In this document: in pieces, positions 3,066 through 44,629 of the stretch | Layout: every line of letters begins with the position of its first letter | How positions within the stretch are numbered: the stretch's first letter is position 1 | Source: Bacilli bacterium | GTDB lineage: Bacteria > Bacillota_I > Bacilli_A > RF39 > UBA660 | Direction: 5' to 3' | DNA: 64,000 nucleotides | NCBI GenBank assembly: GCA_017428485.1 | Contig: JAFRQT010000026.1 | Span: forward strand, 8,699 to 72,698 | Translations under genes and position numbers: made by a program | The notes under the pieces: model-generated | What the model was told of the DNA's origin: nothing | The model's database searches: none | What the model saw: only the letters and a program-made list of their open reading frames with translations

Positions 3066-3639
3066 ATAATCACCATATTAATAATACATTTTTTTGCACC
3101 AAAAAACAACCAGTTCTGATAAAACATGATTGTTTCGAGTTTCTGAAAACGAATTATGAATCATTTATATTAGAAGAGGTTAATCATAACTTAAAAATTA
3201 ATTTAAATTATGAAGAACCAAATTAATATAAACATCTCTAAATATTATCAGTATTTAGCATAATTTCTTATCTTTTTGAGTTTTGCTTTCTCAACGTTAT
3301 AACATTTGTCCTTAGTAGATAAGCATTCTATTTCTTAAATTGATTAAGAAGATTTGATATTTATATAAGGTAATTAATATTATTAAGTAAAATATATATA
3401 AACAATCAATAAATTAATATTAACTATAAATATATATTGAAAAAAAATAATAATATAATTTTATATAAATAAGAAATTTATATAGAATTTTTTCACTAAA
3501 ATAATTAATTTGAATTAAATATAATAAATAATTAAATATAAATATAAAATTTATAGATAAGAATTTAAAATAAATAAAATTAATTATCTATTGGACATTT
3601 ATATATTATCAAATATAAAAATGTATGTCAACACTTTTT

Positions 3640-3683
3640 TTAAAAAAAATAAAAAAATGTCATTTTTTGTAAAATGACATTTT
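3640..3683 (-). terminator. rho-independent terminator after the hydrogenase gene
   Basis: 13-bp arms AAAATGTCATTTT / AAAATGACATTTT (3654-3666 and 3671-3683) with a long U-tract on the minus strand. Confidence 0.6.
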
Positions 3684-5193
3684 AATTAACCTTGTCTTCT
3701 AATAGATAATGCTTATCACTATATGTTGTGTGCAATAGTTTAAAACTCTCTTCGCTTAAAGGTTGATGCAAATAATTTTTATATAATTTTTTTAATTCAT
3801 CATTATCATGAGCACATCTTTTTGCTCTTTGCTTATCTATATTGAATAATCCTTTTGATCTTTCTTCCCTATATTTATCTAAATCTTTTATCGGACATAG
3901 TGGTTGGCCTCCACCACCTACGCAGCCACCCTGACAGTTCATTACTTCAATAAAGTGATATTTCTTGTATTCATTATTTTTTAACAATTCCTCAAGATTT
4001 GACAATTGATGTACAACTGCCACTCTTAGTTTATATTCTCCAATATTTATTGTAGCAGTCTTAATTCCATCATAATTTCTTAATGATGTAAAAACTAGTT
4101 CATCTTTTTTTAGATTTGTTTTCATCATTATTCTATATAATGTTCTTATAACTGATTCGCAAACACCACCTGTAGTTCCAAACATTACTCCACCACCGCT
4201 GCTTTCACCCATTAAGCTATCAAATTTTTCATCTTTTAATGACTCAAATTTAATATCTTCTTCTTTTAATAAAATTGAAAGTTCACTACATGTCATTACA
4301 TAATCTATATTAATTGTATATTCTCTTGCTTCCATTTTTTTAGCAGTGCATGGTGTGATAGCGACTGTTACTATCTTATTTGGATCAAAGCCTTTTTGCT
4401 CACAAAAATAACTTTTTATTATTGCACATTGCATACCTATAGGGCTTTTACAACTTGATAAGTTATTTAATAGTTCTGGATGATATATTTCAGCATATTT
4501 AACCCATGCAGGGCAGCAACTAGTAAATTGTGGTAATGATTTTTTATTTGTTAACCTTGATGCAAATTCAGCAACTTCTTCTAAAATAGTTAAGTCTGCT
4601 CCAAATGCAGTATCAAAGACATAATCAAAACCTAATTCCTTTAATGCAGATACCAATTTTCCTTCGGCGTTCTCACCGTTTTCTAACCCAAAACTTTCTC
4701 CTATAGCTACTCTAACTGCTGGAGATATTAATGCAACAACTATTTTTTCATTAGCATCAATTATTTGTTTAACATCTTTATAACAATATTTTGGCACCAG
4801 TGCACCAGTTGGGCAATTTAATATACATTGACCACATCCTATACATATAGGTTCTTTGCATTTATTTAAATCATATGAGATATTTACTTTGTTTTCACAA
4901 GTGTTTCTACACTGACCACAATTAATACATTTTTCTATTATTCTTGAAATACAATAATTATTATCACTAATTCTTACTTTTTTATCTTCTAATGTGTCAT
5001 TGATTATTTTGCTTTTCTTTTCATTTAATGCATCTTCTAAAACAGAATCTATAATAGAGTCTAAATTATCATATACTGGTTCTGACTCATTAAATTTATC
5101 TTTAGTAGCATTACACATGGGACATATAAAATCTTCTTCTATCTCTTCACTTTCAAAAATATAGCCACAATTTGTACATATATATTTTTTCAT
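3682..5193 (-). CDS. hydA: [FeFe]-hydrogenase catalytic subunit with N-terminal rubredoxin-like Cys4 module and two 4Fe-4S ferredoxin motifs
   Basis: H-cluster motifs FTSCCPAW, TPCTAKKMEA and EVMNCQGGCVGGGGQP. CxxCxxCxxxC motifs CINCGQCRNTC and CIGCGQCILNCP. N-terminal CTNCG..CPMC. Confidence 0.9.
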   Translation of the reverse strand: MKKYICTNCGYIFESEEIEEDFICPMCNATKDKFNESEPVYDNLDSIIDSVLEDALNEKKSKIINDTLEDKKVRISDNNYCISRIIEKCINCGQCRNTCENKVNISYDLNKCKEPICIGCGQCILNCPTGALVPKYCYKDVKQIIDANEKIVVALISPAVRVAIGESFGLENGENAEGKLVSALKELGFDYVFDTAFGADLTILEEVAEFASRLTNKKSLPQFTSCCPAWVKYAEIYHPELLNNLSSCKSPIGMQCAIIKSYFCEQKGFDPNKIVTVAITPCTAKKMEAREYTINIDYVMTCSELSILLKEEDIKFESLKDEKFDSLMGESSGGGVMFGTTGGVCESVIRTLYRIMMKTNLKKDELVFTSLRNYDGIKTATINIGEYKLRVAVVHQLSNLEELLKNNEYKKYHFIEVMNCQGGCVGGGGQPLCPIKDLDKYREERSKGLFNIDKQRAKRCAHDNDELKKLYKNYLHQPLSEESFKLLHTTYSDKHYLLEDKVN

Positions 5194-10713: not shown

Positions 10714-11220
10714 CTAAAATAAATTTTTTATTACTTTGATTAATTTAAAATCATATTTCACTTCTTCATCATCTAAATTTTCATCTATCATACATAATGG
10801 CGGATATAATATACACCAATAATTATTGCCTTTTCCTTCTCCAATTTCTATAACTAAACTTTCGTATTCTCCTTCTTTAAAAATTTGATTATTATACTTT
10901 TTTTTAGGAAAATGATTCATACCATAGCTTATGTTATAGTTCATATTGTAATTATTCTCAGTAAATACTTGATTAATATCATTTTGAATATTCTCAATAT
11001 TATTAATAATATTTTCTCGTGTCATTTCAATGTTATCTTCTTTTTTAAATAGAGTTTTAGATAAAACATTAACTACTTTCATTTTCATAATTATATCAAT
11101 AGAGGAATTACTATTAGCTATTACTCTAAATCTAATAGCATCTTCAGTTAAATTATTTTGATTATCTGATAAGAATATTATTACTAAAATAATAAATAAT
11201 CCTAAAAATATTTTTTTCAT
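10714..11220 (-). CDS. spoIIR: stage II sporulation protein R
   Basis: Signal peptide, IRFRVIANSNS and NYWCILYPPLCMID, matching the SpoIIR signature blocks. Confidence 0.8.
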   Translation of the reverse strand: MKKIFLGLFIILVIIFLSDNQNNLTEDAIRFRVIANSNSSIDIIMKMKVVNVLSKTLFKKEDNIEMTRENIINNIENIQNDINQVFTENNYNMNYNISYGMNHFPKKKYNNQIFKEGEYESLVIEIGEGKGNNYWCILYPPLCMIDENLDDEEVKYDFKLIKVIKNLF

Positions 11221-15634: not shown

Positions 15635-16831
15635 TTATTCTTCAATTTTTGTTCCGCATTCACTACAGAACTTTCCAGTAACTACTGCTCCGCAATTTGG
15701 ACAAGTTTTTTCTTCAGATTTTGGCTCTTGTGTTTGTTCATTTGCTTTTTCTTCAGCTGATTCTTCAACTTTTTCTTCTGGTTTTGCAAATAATGTTCCC
15801 ATTTCAGGTTGTTGATTTCCTGGATTGTATGGTGGAACATCGGACCCTTGATTTGCAGCATTCATCATTGCTCCAGCAGCACCTGATGCCATGTTCATTC
15901 CCATGAATCCCATCATAGCGCCATTTGCATTACTTGATGCATTTCTAAGGGCATCTGCAGAAGCAGAAGCCATTAATCCAGATTGTAAATTCTTATTAGA
16001 GAATATTGTTGCTTCATCAATCTTATTAACTTTAACCATTGATTCATCTGTTAAGTTAATATCCCCTAATGCAACATCTGTAACTTCAAGTCCATAATTT
16101 TTTCTCCATGATTCATCTAAACATGTATTCATTTCATCAGAAATATCGCTATTATATAGACCAATATCTCCAAATGAAACTTTATGTTTTCTCATTACAA
16201 TTGATATTGCTTGAGTTAATTTTTCAACAAATTTTGCTTGCAATTGAGTTCCAATTATTTCATCATAAGTTACTGTATCTTTTGGATTTGCTCCAATTAC
16301 ACTATTTACAAGTAATACTGGATCTACAACTTTAAATGCATATTCTCCAAAGAATGTAACCTCTAACATACCATATTTTTCATCAGTTATTTTTTTTGGC
16401 TGTGGTGAACCAAATTTATTACCAGTTATATTTAGTAAATTTACATAGTAAACTCTTTGATCTTTTGCGGCTTGTCCACCATATGTAAAACGTTTACCAA
16501 TTGTTTTAATAGTATTTAAAATTCCTTCACCAAGTCCTCCTGTAAAAATACTTGGTTCACTACCAGTATCAAATGTATATGTTCCACTTTCTGCAGTAAA
16601 TTCTTTTACTTCTCCATTTTCAATGATCATCATTGCCATTCCTTGTGGTACAGCAATTCCACTTCCGTTTGATATTACTCCTTCAGTAGGATTAGTATTT
16701 CCTTTTCCGTGATTTACTACACCTCTTTGAATAAGAACATCTTTTTCAATTGTAGGACAGGTAACAAATTCTTTAAATTGGTCACCTAATGTAGATGATG
16801 CTGCACTTACTAGTGCTTTAATTAATCCCAT
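15635..16831 (-). CDS. SPFH/band-7-like protein with C-terminal zinc ribbon (YdjI/COG4260-like)
   Basis: MGLIKALVSAA.. N-terminus typical of the family. C-terminal CPNCG..CSECG ribbon after a low-complexity linker. Confidence 0.72.
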   Translation of the reverse strand: MGLIKALVSAASSTLGDQFKEFVTCPTIEKDVLIQRGVVNHGKGNTNPTEGVISNGSGIAVPQGMAMMIIENGEVKEFTAESGTYTFDTGSEPSIFTGGLGEGILNTIKTIGKRFTYGGQAAKDQRVYYVNLLNITGNKFGSPQPKKITDEKYGMLEVTFFGEYAFKVVDPVLLVNSVIGANPKDTVTYDEIIGTQLQAKFVEKLTQAISIVMRKHKVSFGDIGLYNSDISDEMNTCLDESWRKNYGLEVTDVALGDINLTDESMVKVNKIDEATIFSNKNLQSGLMASASADALRNASSNANGAMMGFMGMNMASGAAGAMMNAANQGSDVPPYNPGNQQPEMGTLFAKPEEKVEESAEEKANEQTQEPKSEEKTCPNCGAVVTGKFCSECGTKIEE

Positions 16832-16865: not shown

Positions 16866-16904
16866 AAAAAAGAAAAAAGAAAAAAAGTACTAATTAGTAC
16901 TTTT
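16866..16904 (-). terminator. rho-independent terminator after the noc-like gene
   Basis: 16-bp palindrome AGTACTAATTAGTACT followed on the minus strand by a long U-rich run. Confidence 0.55.
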
Positions 16905-17955
16905 CAATTTCAATTGTTATTTGATATTTATCTGCTAATTCTATTTTTTCTGTTTTAATATTATTTTTTCCAATTGAATAGTTATCAATAATATTACTTA
17001 AATAATTATATATTTCTTCTGAATTATCTTTTTTCTCTATTTCAATTGGTGTAGGTCTTGATTCAATATATTGCTCATCGCTGTTTGTACTCAATTGAAA
17101 TGGATTAATAGCCTCTTCGGTTGAAGTTGTTTCAGTTAATGCTTCGGTATGTTCCTCTTCTATTTTTGTATTTTCTTTTATTATATTTTTTTCATCTTCA
17201 TCTTCTATTGGTTGAATATCAGGTATTCCTATATCGAGAAATTCTATAGTTTCTTCTTTTGCTTCTGGTTTTTGATCATTTTTATTTTCTGGTCTTAAAA
17301 ATCTTTGAATTTCCTCTGGTATATAGTTTTCTTGTTTTATATTATCTCTCATTAATAATAAATTAATTTCTTCTTCTGTTTGTTTAACTGTTAATCTATC
17401 ACTAATTATTTTCTTTAATAAACTTTTTTGTAAATCTTCATTATTTAATGTTAATAAACTTCTAGCGTGCCTTTCAGATATTTGATTGTATAAAAGAGCA
17501 TCTTTTATTTCTTTAGGAAGACTTAACAATCTCATTTTATTAGCTATTGCAGATTGACTTATTCCAAGTTTAGAAGCTATTTCTTCTTGAGTAAATCCTC
17601 TATCTATTAATTTTTTATATGATTGAGCTTCTTCTATTACAGACAAATCTTTTCTTTGCAAATTTTCAAGTAATGCTATTTCTGCACTAGTATTATCATC
17701 TGTATTATTTAGTACTGCTGGTATTGATTTTAAACCAGCTAAACAAGCAGCTTTGTATCTTCTTTCCCCTGCAATTATTTCATATTTTTCGCCAATTTTT
17801 CTAACTACTATTGGCTGAATAACTCCATACTTAATAATAGATTCGGACAAATTATTTAATTCTTGCTCATCAAAAGCAAGCCTAGGTTGAAACCTATTTG
17901 GCAATATGTCTTCAACATTTATATAGTAAATTTTTTCGTTATTATTTTCTTCCAT
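16894..17955 (-). CDS. noc: ParB/Noc-family CTPase DNA-binding protein, Noc-like recognition helix, atypical termini
   Basis: PNRFQPR and GERRYKAA (ParB N-domain/CTP motif). HTH region GISQSAIANKMRLLSLP..ISERHARSL. Position next to rsmG. An in-frame TAG 21 nt upstream of the ATG excludes a longer N-terminus. Confidence 0.8.
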   Translation of the reverse strand: MEENNNEKIYYINVEDILPNRFQPRLAFDEQELNNLSESIIKYGVIQPIVVRKIGEKYEIIAGERRYKAACLAGLKSIPAVLNNTDDNTSAEIALLENLQRKDLSVIEEAQSYKKLIDRGFTQEEIASKLGISQSAIANKMRLLSLPKEIKDALLYNQISERHARSLLTLNNEDLQKSLLKKIISDRLTVKQTEEEINLLLMRDNIKQENYIPEEIQRFLRPENKNDQKPEAKEETIEFLDIGIPDIQPIEDEDEKNIIKENTKIEEEHTEALTETTSTEEAINPFQLSTNSDEQYIESRPTPIEIEKKDNSEEIYNYLSNIIDNYSIGKNNIKTEKIELADKYQITIEIEKY

Positions 17956-23864: not shown

Positions 23865-23923
23865 AATATTTCCTTTTCGAATAATATTATATAAAAAAAA
23901 TTACTTAATTTAAAGTAATTTAT

Positions 23924-24046
23924 TTATTTTGATAATTCTTTTCTTCCTTTTGCTCTTCTTGATTTTAATACTGAACTACCTCTTCTAGATAAAAAACCTG
24001 ATGTTTTACTTTTTTTACTATTATTAGGTTGAAATGTTCTTTTCAT
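23924..24046 (-). CDS. rpmH: 50S ribosomal protein L34
   Basis: Not in the ORF track. Hand translation gives [48 protein letters not shown] upstream. Confidence 0.93.
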
Positions 24047-24395
24047 AATTTTCCTCCCTTTCTTAATTACTGAATTAGATTATATAATATCAATTTACAA
24101 TTGTCAATTTTTATATTTTTTAAAAATATTATGTTAACTTCTATTTAATTATATTAACAACATATTAACAAAATAAAAAATAGTTATTAACAAATTATCA
24201 ACATAAAAATTATATGTTAATAAAATTTTGTTGATATTGTTGATAACTTATTAAAATACCTATAAATTCGACATAAAATTGTTTACATTATCAACAATTG
24301 TTGTTAATATAAATGTTAATAAAATTTTTTACTTTGACATTGCAAATGGATGATTTATAATTTTATTAGAAGTATTTGAGAAAGGAATTTAGATT
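24047..24395. other. oriC, upstream DnaA-box cluster (rpmH-dnaA spacer)
   Basis: TTATCAACA at 24195-24203 and 24288-24296 (+). TGTTGATAA at 24238-24246 and TGTTGATAT at 24229-24237 (-). Several TTAACA/TTATTAACA variants. The gene-strand switch occurs here. Confidence 0.8.
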
Positions 24396-25787
24396 ATGAG
24401 TAATGATGCTATATGGGAAAAATTTTTAACTAGAATAAAATCTAAAGTTTCTCTGATGTCATTTAATTATATTTTTAAAGATCTTAGACTTTACTCATAT
24501 GAAAATTCAAAAATAACAATAGTTATACCTTCAAATGAGTTGCTACTCCAAAATATAAATAAAAATTATAATGATATAATTGAAGAAATATTAAATGATA
24601 TTACAAATGATACATGTGAGATAAAATATGTTTTTGATAAAGATATAGACAAAATATTATTGGATAATAAAATTGTAAATATTGATGAAATTGAAACTAA
24701 AAAAGAAAAAAATGATTTAGATAAATATAATTATAGTAGCAATTTTAATCCAAAATATACTTTTGATACTTTTATTGTTGGTGAATCTAATAAATTAGCT
24801 TATGGAACAGCATTATCTGTAGCAAAAAATCCTGGTAAATTATACAATCCTTATTTTATATATGCTAAAAGTGGACTTGGTAAAACTCATTTAATGCATG
24901 CTATTGGTAATTATATTGTTAGTCATTCAGATAAAAAAGTTTTATATATTACAGCAGAACAATTTACTATTGATTATAGATCTATTTTAAATTATAAGAA
25001 TAAAAATGATAATAATTTTTCATATTTAGAAGCTTTTAGAGAAAAATATAGAAATGTTGATGTTTTAATGATTGATGACATTCAATTTTTAGAAAATATG
25101 CCTAAATCTCAAGTAGAATTTACAAATACATTTAATAGTTTATATGAAAATGAAAAACAAATAATTATTGCTTCTGATACATCTATTAATGATTATAAGA
25201 AAATTGAAGAAAGACTGAAAACAAGATTTAGATGGGGTTTAACTGAATCAATTAATCCACCTGAAATAGAATTAAAGAAAAATATTATAAGAAATAAAAT
25301 TAAAATTAATAATTATGATTTAGATATTAGTGATAACGTAGTTGATTATATTGCAAATAACTGCGGTAGTGACATTAGAAATTTAGAAGGTGCAGTTGTA
25401 AGAATAATTGCATATAAAGCTACATTTAACATTCCAGTTGTTACTTTAGAAATAGCACAAGAAGCATTAAAAGAATTCGTTCCTACTGTTGTTTATAGTA
25501 CTAATTCTGTTACTAAAATAATTGAAATAGTAGCTAAATACTTTAATTTAGATTCTGCAATGTTAAAAGGCAAAATGAAAAAGAAAAATGTTACAGATGC
25601 TCGTGCAATAGCGATGTATTTAAGTAGAAACATGACTGATGAAAGTTTAGAAAGGATAGGATTAGAATTTGGAGGTAGAGATCATTCAACAGTAATATAT
25701 TCTTATGAGAAAATATCTAATGAATTAAAAACTAATATTCAGTTACAACAAGAAATAAAAAAATTAAAAGATAAAATTTGTGAATAA
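24396..25787 (+). CDS. dnaA: chromosomal replication initiator protein DnaA
   Basis: AAA+ Walker A GKSGLGKTHL, Walker B LMIDDIQF, and a domain IV DnaA signature (GGRDHSTVIYS). Confidence 0.97.
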   Translation: MSNDAIWEKFLTRIKSKVSLMSFNYIFKDLRLYSYENSKITIVIPSNELLLQNINKNYNDIIEEILNDITNDTCEIKYVFDKDIDKILLDNKIVNIDEIETKKEKNDLDKYNYSSNFNPKYTFDTFIVGESNKLAYGTALSVAKNPGKLYNPYFIYAKSGLGKTHLMHAIGNYIVSHSDKKVLYITAEQFTIDYRSILNYKNKNDNNFSYLEAFREKYRNVDVLMIDDIQFLENMPKSQVEFTNTFNSLYENEKQIIIASDTSINDYKKIEERLKTRFRWGLTESINPPEIELKKNIIRNKIKINNYDLDISDNVVDYIANNCGSDIRNLEGAVVRIIAYKATFNIPVVTLEIAQEALKEFVPTVVYSTNSVTKIIEIVAKYFNLDSAMLKGKMKKKNVTDARAIAMYLSRNMTDESLERIGLEFGGRDHSTVIYSYEKISNELKTNIQLQQEIKKLKDKICE

Positions 25788-27070: not shown

Positions 27071-27121
27071 ATTTGACAAAATTCGATAAATATCGACAAA
27101 TGCTATATGTTATTGTATAAA
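27071..27121 (+). promoter_or_regulatory. three phased 10-bp direct repeats overlapping a promoter for the ComK-family gene
   Basis: ATTTGACAAA / ATTCGATAAA / TATCGACAAA at 27071-27100. TCGACA (27093-27098), a 17-bp spacer, then the extended -10 TGTATAAA (27114-27121). Confidence 0.45.
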
Positions 27122-27148
27122 ACATTATTTAAGAAAGGGGGAAAATTC

Positions 27149-27607
27149 ATGAATTACGAAATTAATTATGATACACAGCTTATTATGCCCATAAATGAAC
27201 AGCAATCTAAAATCATAGAAAATGAAGATGAATATATTATTAATAATACAACTCTTGAAATAATGGAGCATAGTTGTGAATATTTTGGCAGTTCATTTCA
27301 GGGAAGAAAAGATGGAACTAAAAAATTACTTGGTATTACTCATAAGTCACCTATAATAGTTGAAGAAAGTAATAAAGTAATATTTTTTCCTACTGTTTCG
27401 CCTGAAAATGAGGAATGTTCTTGGATAAATTTAGAATCTATTGATAAGTATTATAAAATTAATTCTAACAAATCAGCCATATTATTTAAAAATGGAACTT
27501 TGATAGAATTTAATATTTCTTATGGCTCTTTAAGTAATCAAATTTTAAGAGCAACTAGATTAAAATATGTACTTGAAGAAAGAACAGAAAAAAAGAGTAA
27601 TTTTTAA
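27149..27607 (+). CDS. comK: ComK-family competence transcription factor homologue
   Basis: SCEYFGSSFQGRKDGT..THKSPIIV..IFFPTVSP..CSWI..ISYGSLSNQILRA parallels the B. subtilis ComK blocks. GGGGG RBS before ATG 27149. Confidence 0.78.
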   Translation: MNYEINYDTQLIMPINEQQSKIIENEDEYIINNTTLEIMEHSCEYFGSSFQGRKDGTKKLLGITHKSPIIVEESNKVIFFPTVSPENEECSWINLESIDKYYKINSNKSAILFKNGTLIEFNISYGSLSNQILRATRLKYVLEERTEKKSNF

Positions 27608-30723: not shown

Positions 30724-33252
30724 ATGGAAGAAGATATTAAAGAAAATGAAAATACTGAAGAAGAATTTGAAAATATTGATAAAGTAAGTATTGACAATAA
30801 TAACTTCAGTGGATATTTTCATGAAAGAGATAGATTAGATCATAATAATATAGTTGATGAAGTAAAAACATCTTTTATGGAATATTCAATGAGTGTTATT
30901 GCTTCTCGTGCACTTCCTGATTTAAGAGATGGTTTAAAACCAGTTCACAGAAGAATTTTATGGTCAATGTATGAATCAGGTTATACACCAGATAAACCTC
31001 ATAGAAAAAGTGCAAAAACTGTTGGTGAAGTTATGGGTAATTATCACCCACACGGAGATTCATCAATATATGAAGCAATGGTTCGTTTAGCACAAGATTT
31101 CAACCAAAGATATATGTTAATAGATGGACATGGAAACTTTGGTAATATTGAGGGTGATGGAGCAGCTGCAATGCGTTATACAGAATCAAGATTAGCAAAA
31201 ATATCACTAGAATTATTAAGAGATATTAATAAAGATACAGTTGATATGGATGATAATTTTGATGTTACAAGAAAAGAACCAAAAGTATTGCCATCAAGAT
31301 TTCCAAATGTTTTAGTAAATGGCTCTATGGGTATAGCGGTTGGTATGGCAACAAATATACCACCACATAATCTTGGTGAAGTTATAGATGGATGTGTTGC
31401 TTATATTGATAATCCAAATATAGATGTGCTTGGATTAATGGATTATATAAAAGGTCCTGATTTTCCAACTGGCGGAATAATTTTAGGTAATTCGGGAATA
31501 AAAAAAGCATACGAAACTGGACGAGGATCAATTACTATTCGTGGTAAAGCAACAATTGAGGAATCTGATGGACATAATACTATAGTATTTACTGAAGTTC
31601 CATATGGTGTTAATACAATGGAATTAAAAAATAAAGTAGCTGAATTAGTTCATACGAAAGTAATTGATGGAATTTCTGATTATCACACTGATTTAAAAGA
31701 TGGTGTTAAGATAACAATAACATTAAAGAAAGATGCAAATCCACAAGTAGTTTTAAATAATCTATATAAGCATACCGCATTTCAAGTAAATTATGGAATT
31801 ATATTCTTAGTGTTAGATGGTTTAACTCCTAAAACACTTGGTCTAAAAGATATAATTGCTAAATATATAGATCATCAAAAAGAAGTAATAATTAGAAGAA
31901 CTAAGTTTGATTTAATAAAAGATGAAAAAAGAGTTCATATTCTAGAAGGTTATAAAATTGCTTTAGATCATATAGATGAAGTAGTTAAAATAATAAGGAA
32001 TGCTAAAACAGATGAAGAAGCTAAAACAAATTTAATAGATAAATTTGGATTAGATATGATTCAAGCAGAAGCAATTCTTGAATTGAAGTTGAGAAGATTA
32101 ACTGGATTAGAAAGAGACAAAATTGAAAATGAACTAGCTGAATTATTAAAAGAAATTGAAGAATTAAAATCAATTTTAGCTAGCGAGGAAAAAGTGTTAC
32201 AAATTATTAAGAAAGAAATGTTGGAAATTAAAGATAGATATGCCGATGAAAGACGTACAACAATTGATAATACAGCAATAGAATATATTGAAGATGAGTC
32301 TTTAATTCCACAAGAAGAAATAATAGTTACTATTACCAATAAGAATTATATTAAGAGAATATCTAAAGATACTTATAGAGTACAACATAGAGGTGGAGTT
32401 GGTATTAAAGGAATGACAACTACAGAAGAAGATTTCGTAGAACAATTAATATCACTAAATACTCATGATCATATATTATTCTTTACTAACAAAGGAAAAG
32501 TATATAGACTAAAAGGTTATAAAATACCAGAATACTCTCGTACTGCAAAAGGATTACCAATTATTAACTTATTGCCTATTGATAAAGAAGAAAAAGTAAA
32601 CGCAATGATTAAGATAAGTAATAACGACACGTACAAATGTTTGATATTTGCAACAAAAAAAGGCTTAATTAAACGTACTTTAGTTAGTGAATTCGATAAT
32701 ATAAGGCAAACAGGTAAAATAGCTATCACTTTAAAAGAAGATGATGAACTAATATCTGTAAAAAAGACAACTGGTGAAGATCAAGTTCTAATGTGTTCAT
32801 CAAATGGTAGAATGGCTAGGTTTGACGAAAATGAAATTAGAATAATGGGAAGAACAGCTGCTGGAGTAAGAGGAATTAATCTTACTAATGATGAGTGCGT
32901 TGGAATGGAAATATCAGATCCTGAAAAATTACTATTAGTTGTTACAGAAAAAGGATACGGTAAAAAAACAGTAATTGATGAATATAGACAAACAAAACGT
33001 GGAAGCAAAGGAGTTAAAACTCTAAACATTTCAGAAAAGAATGGAAAGATAGTTAGTTTCAAAGCAACTGACAATAATAAAGACTTATTACTTATCACAA
33101 AAAACGGAATGATTATTAGAATAAGTGTAGAATCAGTATCTCAAATGGGAAGAGTTACAAAAGGTGTTAGATTGATCAATTTAAAAGACAACAATGAGGT
33201 AGCGTCTATTTCTGTTATTGAAAAAGAAGAAGAAAAAGAAGATGAAGAATAA
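30724..33252 (+). CDS. gyrA: DNA gyrase subunit A
   Basis: Active-site region AAMRYTE, a QRDR-like HPHGDSSIYEA, and a C-terminal beta-pinwheel with an acidic tail. Confidence 0.97.
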   Translation: MEEDIKENENTEEEFENIDKVSIDNNNFSGYFHERDRLDHNNIVDEVKTSFMEYSMSVIASRALPDLRDGLKPVHRRILWSMYESGYTPDKPHRKSAKTVGEVMGNYHPHGDSSIYEAMVRLAQDFNQRYMLIDGHGNFGNIEGDGAAAMRYTESRLAKISLELLRDINKDTVDMDDNFDVTRKEPKVLPSRFPNVLVNGSMGIAVGMATNIPPHNLGEVIDGCVAYIDNPNIDVLGLMDYIKGPDFPTGGIILGNSGIKKAYETGRGSITIRGKATIEESDGHNTIVFTEVPYGVNTMELKNKVAELVHTKVIDGISDYHTDLKDGVKITITLKKDANPQVVLNNLYKHTAFQVNYGIIFLVLDGLTPKTLGLKDIIAKYIDHQKEVIIRRTKFDLIKDEKRVHILEGYKIALDHIDEVVKIIRNAKTDEEAKTNLIDKFGLDMIQAEAILELKLRRLTGLERDKIENELAELLKEIEELKSILASEEKVLQIIKKEMLEIKDRYADERRTTIDNTAIEYIEDESLIPQEEIIVTITNKNYIKRISKDTYRVQHRGGVGIKGMTTTEEDFVEQLISLNTHDHILFFTNKGKVYRLKGYKIPEYSRTAKGLPIINLLPIDKEEKVNAMIKISNNDTYKCLIFATKKGLIKRTLVSEFDNIRQTGKIAITLKEDDELISVKKTTGEDQVLMCSSNGRMARFDENEIRIMGRTAAGVRGINLTNDECVGMEISDPEKLLLVVTEKGYGKKTVIDEYRQTKRGSKGVKTLNISEKNGKIVSFKATDNNKDLLLITKNGMIIRISVESVSQMGRVTKGVRLINLKDNNEVASISVIEKEEEKEDEE

Positions 33253-33265
33253 TCTTCTTTTTTAA

Positions 33266-33281
33266 TGTTCCACGTGGAACA
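33266..33281. promoter_or_regulatory. parS site 1 (perfect symmetric TGTTCCACGTGGAACA)
   Basis: Exact 16-mer embedded in a 32-bp perfect palindrome at 33258-33289, 6 bp after the gyrA stop. Confidence 0.8.
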
Positions 33282-33298
33282 TTAAAAAATATACAAAA

Positions 33299-33314
33299 TA
33301 TTTCCCGGGAAATA
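33299..33314. promoter_or_regulatory. Noc-binding-site-like palindrome 1 (TATTTCCCGGGAAATA)
   Basis: Exact 16-mer within a 24-bp perfect palindrome at 33295-33318. Matches the B. subtilis NBS consensus ATTTCCCGGGAAAT. Confidence 0.7.
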
Positions 33315-33357
33315 TTTTATAGTAGAATACTACTAAAGTGTAAGACAAAGAAAACAA

Positions 33358-33373
33358 AGTTCCACGTGGAACA
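33358..33373. promoter_or_regulatory. parS site 2 (AGTTCCACGTGGAACA, one mismatch)
   Basis: 15 of 16 positions match the symmetric parS. Confidence 0.7.
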
Positions 33374-33468
33374 TTATTTTCTTTAATTATAAAGTTGTTA
33401 AATTAGTTATTTATATAGCTAGTTTGTTATAACATATTATTAAGTTGATAATATAATTTTATTTTTAA

Positions 33469-33484
33469 TGTTCCACGTGGAACA
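33469..33484. promoter_or_regulatory. parS site 3 (perfect)
   Basis: Exact 16-mer within a 30-bp perfect palindrome at 33462-33491. Confidence 0.8.
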
Positions 33485-33606
33485 TTAAAAATAATACTTT
33501 TGTTAATTACTTATTCGATAGTATATTAAATAATAATTATAATTTTTTAATATAATAATCATTTTTATATGATTAATTGCTTAATAATATATTATTATAT
33601 AACTAA

Positions 33607-33622
33607 TGTTCCACGTGGAACA
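33607..33622. promoter_or_regulatory. parS site 4 (perfect)
   Basis: Exact 16-mer within a 28-bp perfect palindrome at 33601-33628. Confidence 0.8.
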
Positions 33623-33830
33623 TTAGTTTTCTTTTTCAATAAACTAGATCAAATACAGTTATTTTATATATGATGTTTTATATTTTAACTACCGCATTAA
33701 TAATCTATATAGATTATATTTTTAATTTACATCTAAATTAAATATTAACTTATTATATTTACATTAGTATCATTTATATATATTTACAGATACTTTTCAT
33801 GTTAAATATTGTATAAAAATTATTGAAAAT

Positions 33831-33846
33831 TATTTCCCGGGAAATA
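33831..33846. promoter_or_regulatory. Noc-binding-site-like palindrome 2 (TATTTCCCGGGAAATA)
   Basis: Second exact copy of the 16-mer, about 530 bp from the first. Confidence 0.7.
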
Positions 33847-33938
33847 TTTTTTTAAATATTATGTTAACTTTTAATATTTAATTACTAAAAAATGAAATAA
33901 TACTTGATTATTAAAATAAAATAATATAAAATAATTTT

Positions 33939-34010
33939 GTGCAATGAGAAATAAATGAAACAGGTCAGAATCGGAAGATAGCAGCCTTAAATTTGTTTCT
34001 CATGTGCACA
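33939..34010 (+). ncRNA. ffs: signal recognition particle RNA, short 4.5S-type (no Alu domain)
   Basis: Single hairpin with an 18-bp closing stem (GTGCAATGAGAAATAAAT / ATTTGTTTCTCATGTGCAC). Apical CAGGTCAGAATCGGAAGATAGCAGCC is the domain IV consensus with a GGAA tetraloop. TTGATT-17-TAAAAT promoter at 33904-33932 and a T-run at 34013-34018. Confidence 0.75.
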
Positions 34011-34044
34011 TATTTTTTATATAAGGATGCGAATAAGTGTTTGT

Positions 34045-44131: not shown

Positions 44132-44629
44132 ATGAATCAAACTGGTATCATAAGAAAAATAGATGATTTAGGGCGTATAGTATTACCAAAAGAATTAAGA
44201 AAGCATTTAAATATTAATTCAGGCGATGACTTTCAAATTTTATTAGATGGTGAAAGAATAATTTTAGAAAAATATTCATATTTAAAAAAATATAATAAAG
44301 AACTATTAAAAATAATAGATTGTTTCAATGAAATTAAAAATTATGATATAAATTTGATAATAAATAATAAAATAATTAATAAAGACAACATTGTAATAAA
44401 TAATAAATATATTGATATTATTAAGGAAAGAAAAATATATATAAATGATTTAGTTTCAAAAATAGAAATATCTAAAAACATAATTAAAGAGGGAAAATTA
44501 GTAATATATCCAATTGTAATAAATAGTGATTTACTGGGTTCAATATTAATAATATCTAATGATAAAATAGAAAACGTATTAAACTATGCTAAAGTAATTA
44601 ACAATTTGATTAAGAACTATTATATATAA
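44132..44629 (+). CDS. spoVT: stage V sporulation protein T (AbrB-type N-domain + GAF-like C-domain)
   Basis: TGIIRKIDDLGRIVLPKELRK SpoVT/AbrB swapped-hairpin motif. Length and position after mfd are as in Bacillus. Confidence 0.8.
   Translation: MNQTGIIRKIDDLGRIVLPKELRKHLNINSGDDFQILLDGERIILEKYSYLKKYNKELLKIIDCFNEIKNYDINLIINNKIINKDNIVINNKYIDIIKERKIYINDLVSKIEISKNIIKEGKLVIYPIVINSDLLGSILIISNDKIENVLNYAKVINNLIKNYYI

Follow-up and report, generated by a model that had tools for sequence, protein, structure and literature searches.

In the DNA analysed here, four parS sites and two exact Noc-binding sites (NBS) are located together in one non-coding spacer of 680 bp, between the 3′ end of gyrA and the SRP RNA gene. 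The two NBS palindromes probably are genuine loading sites of the organism's own Noc-type CTP-dependent clamp, situated within a conserved composite parS centromere. For this reading, which draws on motif identity, conservation and predicted DNA-reading residues, we estimate a probability of about 0.75. Chances seem about even that the Noc-type protein would have an origin-resident role rather than one in chromosome-wide nucleoid occlusion.

Two site classes in the spacer downstream of gyrA

The window, i.e., the whole stretch of 64 kb that was analysed, contains the following features in and around the spacer:

30724-33252 (+): gyrA, the left boundary of the spacer (Pfam DNA_topoisoIV and DNA_gyraseA_C)
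33266-33281: parS-1, TGTTCCACGTGGAACA, 13 bp past the gyrA stop codon
33299-33314: NBS-1, TATTTCCCGGGAAATA, exact 16-mer, the core of a 24-bp palindrome
33358-33373: parS-2, AGTTCCACGTGGAACA, with one outer-base mismatch
33469-33484: parS-3, TGTTCCACGTGGAACA, within a 30-bp palindrome
33607-33622: parS-4, TGTTCCACGTGGAACA
33831-33846: NBS-2, TATTTCCCGGGAAATA, exact 16-mer, with the SRP RNA gene 87 bp downstream
33933-34018 (+): SRP RNA (ffs), the right boundary of the spacer (Rfam RF00169, 59.5 bits)

The two palindromes are identical to the published NBS core, ATTTCCCGGGAAAT, with adenine at position 1 and cytosine at position 6 of each half-site (PMC7383237, PMC8429893), and both fall within one 550-bp block. 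NBS-1 is enclosed by the 24-bp perfect palindrome AAAATATTTCCCGGGAAATATTTT (33295-33318) and starts 17 bp beyond the end of parS-1, ahead of parS-2. Each of the four parS sites of the window deviates by no more than one or two mismatches from the degenerate consensus TGTTNCACGTGAAACA. The preliminary description had reported the two exact NBS, the position of the first inside the palindrome after parS-1 and before parS-2, and the position of the second ahead of the SRP RNA; all of this was confirmed by the motif search of the window and, for the last point, by the RF00169 match.

With up to two mismatches allowed, TATTTCCCGGGAAATA was found nowhere else in the 64-kb window, and the search gave no further NBS or parS in the 81 kb surrounding oriC, which comprise the window and approximately 9-10 kb past each of its ends on a 228-kb metagenome scaffold. 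By chance, 0.03 copies of TATTTCCCGGGAAATA are expected in the window and none of 100 shuffles contained two or more, so that a chance occurrence was rejected. The hexamer CCCGGG occurs three times in the 64-kb window, two of the occurrences being the NBS copies.

Position relative to the replication origin

The window has a GC content of 24%. The sign of its GC skew switches near 24 kb, at the divergent genes rnpA and dnaA, the latter beginning at 24396. The origin was delimited there as follows:

23865-24395: oriC region upstream of dnaA (GC-skew sign change and DnaA-box scan)
24195, 24238 and 24288: DnaA boxes TTATCAACA (DnaA-box scan)

By the skew switch, dnaA and the DnaA boxes flanking it, the site cluster lies right of oriC and about 9 kb from it. 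The claim that parS and NBS share one non-coding block near the origin holds, at about this distance from dnaA.

Further features of the region concern its gene content. An ORF of the ComK family lies between dnaN and recF (27107-27607, +) and is kept in relatives (Pfam PF06338 in L001 and L172). The Rfam PGK RNA motif (RF03040, 85.5 bits) was found at 3238-3330 (−). SpoIIR and SpoVT/AbrB-like genes are present at 10714-11220 (−) and 44132-44629 (+), from which this organism of small genome and 24% GC may be able to sporulate. A possible sporulation makes an origin-marking role in asymmetric division conceivable.

Conservation of the composite spacer in relatives

Scanning the GTDB species genomes with DnaN as seed yielded 17 loci, from Clostridium sp. 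CAG:524 and from Mollicutes, Mycoplasmatota, Bacilli and Erysipelotrichaceae MAGs, 15 of which reach the gyrA 3′ spacer. The DnaN proteins of these relatives are 76-95% identical to that of the window, mostly about 80%. In all 15 relatives reaching it, the spacer contains three to eight parS and one to three NBS, the latter all perfect save one copy with a single mismatch. An NBS is located at the parS-1 end of the cluster in each of the 15 and starts 26-36 bp past the first parS in 13 of them; a parS-1 at the equivalent place, with at most one mismatch, is likewise present in 13 of 15. Among the relatives, just L004, the nearest one, and L017 have additional copies like NBS-2, with three NBS each, and no NBS was found outside the spacer in the 21-kb loci of the relatives. 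The spacing from NBS to parS is variable (21-69 bp), which speaks for no fixed protein-protein geometry and argues against a rigid heteromeric contact.

Among the relatives, the parS and NBS 16-mers are invariant while the flanks have diverged. For the NBS, this invariance without compensatory changes points to recognition by a sequence-specific protein. The parS of the clade is nearly always TGTTCCAC, which differs from the NBS at three positions per half-site and not at two, the extra difference being position 4. Hybrid dimers of one parS half and one NBS half were found in none of the loci; together with the third half-site difference, this fits two proteins which need discrimination between their sites. 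The juxtaposition of parS and NBS was in this respect understated by the preliminary description, since it is conserved through a large clade of uncultured bacteria, apparently of the gut, with very low GC content, in which NBS also seem to be limited to the surroundings of the origin.

Metagenomic occurrence, tandem arrays and apparent origin restriction

A metagenome scan with the perfect NBS 16-mer yielded at least 120 loci, with 56 listed below 31.5% GC and 64 above 31% GC. Among the matches listed, a parS is also present in about 30 of the 56 low-GC loci, and within 250 bp of the NBS in 0 of the 64 loci above 31% GC. When the low-GC loci with parS from the window, the GTDB genomes and the metagenome matches listed were pooled, 56 of their 91 NBS were located at most 100 bp and 37 at most 40 bp from a parS. 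The low-GC metagenome loci alone contain 91 perfect NBS among the matches listed, with 42 in the gyrA-tadA spacer, 12 at dnaX and 8 at rsmI.

Mapping of the window proteins assigned 41 of the 56 low-GC loci listed to the block dnaA-dnaN-recF-gyrB-gyrA-tadA-dnaX-recR and 9 to the adjacent syntenic genes jag/mnmE or MTase-rsmI-pth-mfd-tatD. The remaining ones are a Halanaerobiales noc-soj-spo0J locus and five loci without placement. Among the matches listed, about 50 of the 56 low-GC NBS loci lie in one origin-proximal block of about 25 kb, from jag to mfd. The concentration of about 90% of a location-blind sample in one such block argues that the NBS are confined to the origin region, and the NBS of the clade appear to be origin-restricted as far as perfect 16-mers and the matches listed are concerned. 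In B. subtilis and S. aureus, NBS are spread over megabase-scale regions (PMC5540599).

In several lineages the two site classes form arrays. An NBS/parS pair with an offset of 29 bp is repeated four to five times in L076 and L118. In L073, parS and NBS alternate in a 119-bp tandem repeat (L073:2838-3330), and parS/NBS pairs are contained in a 105-bp repeat of L160 (L160:2468-3010) and a 55-bp repeat of L145 (L145:7218-7420). The copy number of the two sites in L073, L160 and L145 grew by duplication of the unit; some copies in these repeats carry single mismatches.

A DnaA-box-like 9-mer, TTATNNACA, abuts parS with a spacer of exactly 1 nt in the relatives L005-L020, L073 and L118. It was found at 48 of 404 parS flanks among the loci listed, compared to 0.2 expected. 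In L118 (e.g., 209-253) the unit parS-T-TGTGGATAA-AAT-NBS, containing a perfect DnaA box, is present five times, and TTATCAACA, the box type of the window oriC, was found seven times. No DnaA-box-like 9-mer lies beside parS in the window spacer (33253-33932). The pattern suggests three-component arrays of DnaA box, parS and NBS in some lineages.

Two further observations were made outside of the clade's arrays. L117 (PDWJ01001389.1, 50% GC) encodes a ParB next to Soj (3109-3750) with the residues R-K-N-R and contains the hybrid site TGTTTCCCGGGAAACA at 1207-1222, with guanine at position 1 and cytosine at position 6. Such a G1/C6 hybrid is the type of site which was found for R173/R201 variants (Jalal 2020, PMC7383237), and this ParB with its site may, judging by these residues, represent a natural intermediate between parS and NBS. 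A scan of viral contigs for NBS gave 27 unrelated loci. Three perfect NBS 16-mers (L039, L040 and L041) are present on the putative viral contig IMGVR_UViG_3300048835_000741, and two on IMGVR_UViG_3300037504_001072.

The Noc-type protein

Within the 81 kb around oriC, a single gene belongs to the ParB family. It encodes a Noc-type protein and is followed by a gene for an SPFH protein:

16894-17955 (−): Noc-type ParB-family gene, 353 aa, directly after rsmG (Pfam ParB_N, PF02195, and HTH_ParB, PF17762)
15635-16831 (−): SPFH/Band_7_1 protein with a C-terminal zinc ribbon

The best NCBIfam match of the Noc-type protein is TIGR04285 (nucleoid_noc), with 266.7 bits compared to a cut-off of 315 bits; the score stays below the cut-off because only positions 2-202 of the 255 model positions align. 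A small NJ tree calculated from the NTD and DBD groups the protein with Noc at a bootstrap value of 100%. The tree did not support a basal branching of the clade, as would correspond to an ancestral state; the clade nests within Noc, with weak internal support. The CTP motifs GERRYKA and ENLQRK are present and are invariant among 24 orthologues.

The DNA specificity of this family was assigned to four residues, which are R173/T179/A184/G201 in ParB and Q/K/K/R in Noc (Jalal 2020, PMC7383237). Q173 is the residue that recognizes adenine 1, whereas cytosine 6 is recognized by R201, given a lysine at position 179 or 184 (PMC7383237). The Noc-type protein reads GISQSAIANKMRLLSLP...ISERHAR, corresponding to Q173, K179, S184 and R201. 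Q173 and R201 are shared by all of the best 120 homologues from the database, whose identity is 52-99%, and position 179 is K or R throughout. Position 184 is occupied by N, T, S, V or A in the orthologues, as opposed to the nearly invariant K in known Noc, and the combination QKSR does not occur in the accessible part of the supplementary variant data of PMC7383237. Following the published residue code, the protein is predicted to read NBS and not parS. The proposal that the palindromes are Noc-binding sites is supported by their identity to NBS, by a Noc-type gene with Q173, K179 and R201, and by the invariance of the 16-mer.

The N-terminus of the protein is short. The ORF begins with MEENNNEKIYY, the PNRFQPR motif follows only 18 residues on, and an in-frame stop 7 codons upstream leaves no possible N-terminal extension. 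Its net charge is −2 and its hydrophobic moment 0.17, compared to +2 and 0.50 in B. subtilis Noc, and the N-termini of the listed orthologues are equally short before PNRFQPR and nearly all acidic. In B. subtilis Noc, an N-terminal amphipathic helix of about 10 aa is needed for membrane binding and nucleoid occlusion (PMC8429893). The Noc-type protein is by these measures predicted to be without an N-terminal membrane-targeting helix. An (L/F/I)G(K/R)G(L/F/I) ParA-binding motif (PMC12704722) was also not found at its N-terminus.

In the structure model, the NTD and DBD are folded and are followed by a linker of approximately 90 aa (pLDDT mostly <50) and a Noc-like C-terminal domain. The linker is acidic and carries a conserved INPFQ (residues 283-287). 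Behind the DBD, the conserved and amphipathic stretch IPEEIQRFL (residues 212-220) has the highest hydrophobic moment of the whole protein, and the orthologues P0033 and P0097 contain four to five NPF repeats. By their appearance, IPEEIQRFL and INPFQ look like partner-binding motifs.

The neighbourhood of the gene is stable. The rsmG-noc synteny is also present in the contexts of relatives, the SPFH/zinc-ribbon gene always follows the Noc-type gene, and the order rsmG-noc-SPFH/zinc-ribbon-PBP is kept in every context seen, including two distant orthologues. That the SPFH/zinc-ribbon protein could be a membrane-associated partner of the Noc-type protein is pure speculation.

Which protein reads parS

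Firmicutes normally carry soj-spo0J around oriC. Here, tblastn with Spo0J, Soj and Noc as queries detected only the Noc-type gene in the window, and tblastn for ParB/ParA on the 17 GTDB loci had the same outcome. Neither ParB nor ParA was found on the scaffold within about 9-10 kb past each window end, and a canonical ParB (R173, G201) or ParA is likewise absent from the 81 kb around oriC and from the loci of the relatives. No canonical ParB/ParA lies near the noc genes of the two distant orthologues, where the rsmG-noc-SPFH-PBP order is found instead. A database search with a low-GC ParB, for which the seed was from Halanaerobiales, retrieved only relatives of the seed itself and did not reach the clade. 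We infer a parS reader because parS is strongly conserved, and as only about 5% of the approximately 1.5-Mb genome is covered, a ParB gene elsewhere is entirely possible.

The single ParB-family gene in the 81 kb around oriC, and likewise in the loci of the relatives, could also mean that the canonical ParB was lost and that the Noc-type protein, by itself or after a change of specificity, is the sole centromere protein, acting on both parS and NBS. Variants with such dual specificity exist, as 82 of 362 NBS binders in the mutational scan belong to this type (PMC7383237), and residue 184 of the Noc-type protein departs from the Noc consensus. However, parS-specific variants always retain R173 (PMC7383237), whereas the best 120 orthologues all have Q173, and according to the crystal structures a glutamine is unable to form a bond with guanine 1 (PMC7383237). 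Moreover, Noc of B. subtilis does not load on parS (PMC8429893), and neither the lack of hybrid parS/NBS dimers nor the extra parS difference at position 4 is in favor of a shared reader. Together with the small part of the genome covered, this makes the use of one protein for both sites improbable. The preliminary description had offered two clamps or one protein reading both sequences; of these, two clamps are favored by Q173 in the homologues, the lack of hybrid dimers and the behavior of B. subtilis Noc.

Other explanations for the palindromes

The NBS could belong to an ordinary nucleoid occlusion system, with many sites scattered as in B. subtilis and S. aureus and two of them merely lying in the centromere spacer. 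The sampling outside the window, which covers perfect 16-mers only, leaves some room for this. It is, however, at odds with the NBS kept beside parS-1 in all 15 relatives, with the location of about 50 of the 56 low-GC loci listed in one 25-kb block and with the tandem repetition of parS/NBS units in several lineages, and the Noc-type protein has no predicted membrane helix as is required for occlusion (PMC8429893). We regard ordinary occlusion as unlikely.

Far less probable still is a palindrome that has nothing to do with Noc, whether it would form a terminator or another RNA hairpin, serve as operator for some unrelated regulator or be an artefact of the CCCGGG restriction site. A perfect palindrome right after gyrA, containing a SmaI/XmaI site, would be compatible with this. 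But gyrA appears to have its own hairpin and T-run upstream of parS-1, and the terminator scan marks parS hairpins and not the NBS. As the 16-mer is also invariant instead of covarying across diverged genomes, the hairpin or terminator reading was rejected. The restriction-site artefact was rejected as well, since conservation and the match to NBS extend over all 16 bases, beyond the CCCGGG core. In addition, a predicted cognate reader is encoded nearby. The preferred reading remains that the palindromes are loading sites of the Noc-type protein.

Comparison with known systems

The 16-bp NBS is the same as in the Noc-NBS systems of B. subtilis and S. aureus (Wu 2009; Adams 2015, PMC4331003; Jalal 2021, PMC8429893; Pang 2017, PMC5540599). 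The protein shares with the Noc of these species Q173, K179 and R201, the CTP motifs, the neighbouring rsmG (gidB) and a Noc-like C-terminal domain. In contrast to them, it has no amphipathic helix, contains an acidic linker of about 90 aa with IQRFL and NPF, has K184 replaced and scores below the TIGR04285 cut-off. The site distribution differs as well: B. subtilis and S. aureus have about 40-70 NBS, which extend across half to two-thirds of the chromosome on the side of the origin, whereas the clade described here has one to seven NBS per genome, in or near the parS cluster.

As in the ParB-parS clusters of B. subtilis (Spo0J), Caulobacter, Corynebacterium and Myxococcus, several near-perfect parS are grouped in about 1 kb of DNA at a distance of a few kb from oriC, and a ParB might be expected to load and slide there. 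These known clusters consist of parS only, while here parS and sites of a second, paralogous class follow one another in turn, which in some relatives takes the form of fixed repeats of 55, 105 or 119 bp, and unlike in the known clusters no parAB operon lies beside the origin.

Origin-proximal palindromes are also used by RacA-ram in B. subtilis, where they anchor the region relative to the division apparatus. Similarly, in B. subtilis RefZ-RBM origin-proximal palindromes let a dedicated protein mark or tether the region relative to the division apparatus (10.1101/459685). RacA (MerR-like) and RefZ (TetR-like) belong to unrelated families, and their sites are not known to be interleaved with parS, nor the proteins to be CTP clamps. 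By analogy, the parS/NBS element may work like the origin marking of RacA-ram and RefZ-RBM.

S. aureus Noc is a regulator of replication initiation (PMC5540599), which offers a parallel for a Noc acting at or near the origin. The DnaA-box-like 9-mers abutting parS in relatives hint at a link to DnaA that could be compared to this function (PMC5540599); the window spacer itself is without a DnaA box. In S. aureus, however, the ChIP peaks on either side of dnaA are minor ones, the major sites being dispersed, and there are no composite arrays (PMC5540599).

Proposed role and significance

In the proposed mechanism, a dimer of the Noc-type protein would nucleate on an NBS and close into a CTP clamp, while a separate ParB would nucleate on parS, at closest 5-20 bp from an NBS (minimum 5-6 bp). 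Both clamps would occupy the same approximately 1 kb of DNA and form a mixed partition complex. ParB sliding can be blocked by DNA-bound proteins (PMC7053999), so that mutual restriction of the ParB and Noc-type clamps, or their assembly into a mixed complex, is to be expected. The Noc-type protein would then be an origin- or centromere-resident factor and not a chromosome-wide nucleoid-occlusion factor; it might tether or mark the origin region, bound the sliding of ParB, or couple segregation to division or initiation through the conserved linker motifs.

The odds seem balanced for a wider reading, in which Noc would have been repurposed in this clade as a second centromere-resident clamp of the ParB family. 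Its sites would have become interleaved with parS, in some lineages as fixed units of parS, DnaA box and NBS, and the protein would have lost the helix and gained a disordered linker, resulting in a composite centromere that links segregation to the control of division or replication.

Full-text literature searches on Noc, NBS and parS returned no description of a juxtaposition or interleaving of parS and NBS, nor of Noc in Mollicutes-like bacteria, in agreement with the preliminary description, which knew of no such juxtaposition. While Noc, NBS and parS are known already, their composite arrangement, the apparent confinement of NBS to the origin region and a Noc without the helix seem to be new.

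In the textbook view, Noc arose as a duplicate of ParB that gained another DNA specificity and, with nucleoid occlusion via membrane tethering, another function. Here the changed specificity is kept, yet the sites have stayed within the centromere and the protein is without the membrane helix, which bears on the divergence of ParB and Noc and on the role of Noc outside Bacillus and Staphylococcus. The arrangement also poses a physical problem, namely whether two paralogous CTP clamps, which would load 5-20 bp apart, block each other, bypass each other or co-condense. The conserved parS/NBS arrays are ready substrates for in vitro work and heterologous ChIP, and natural compact cassettes for orthogonal two-colour labelling with ParB and Noc. 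If the proposed reading is true, these bacteria would possess a new kind of composite bacterial centromere, in which segregation is coupled with division or replication control.
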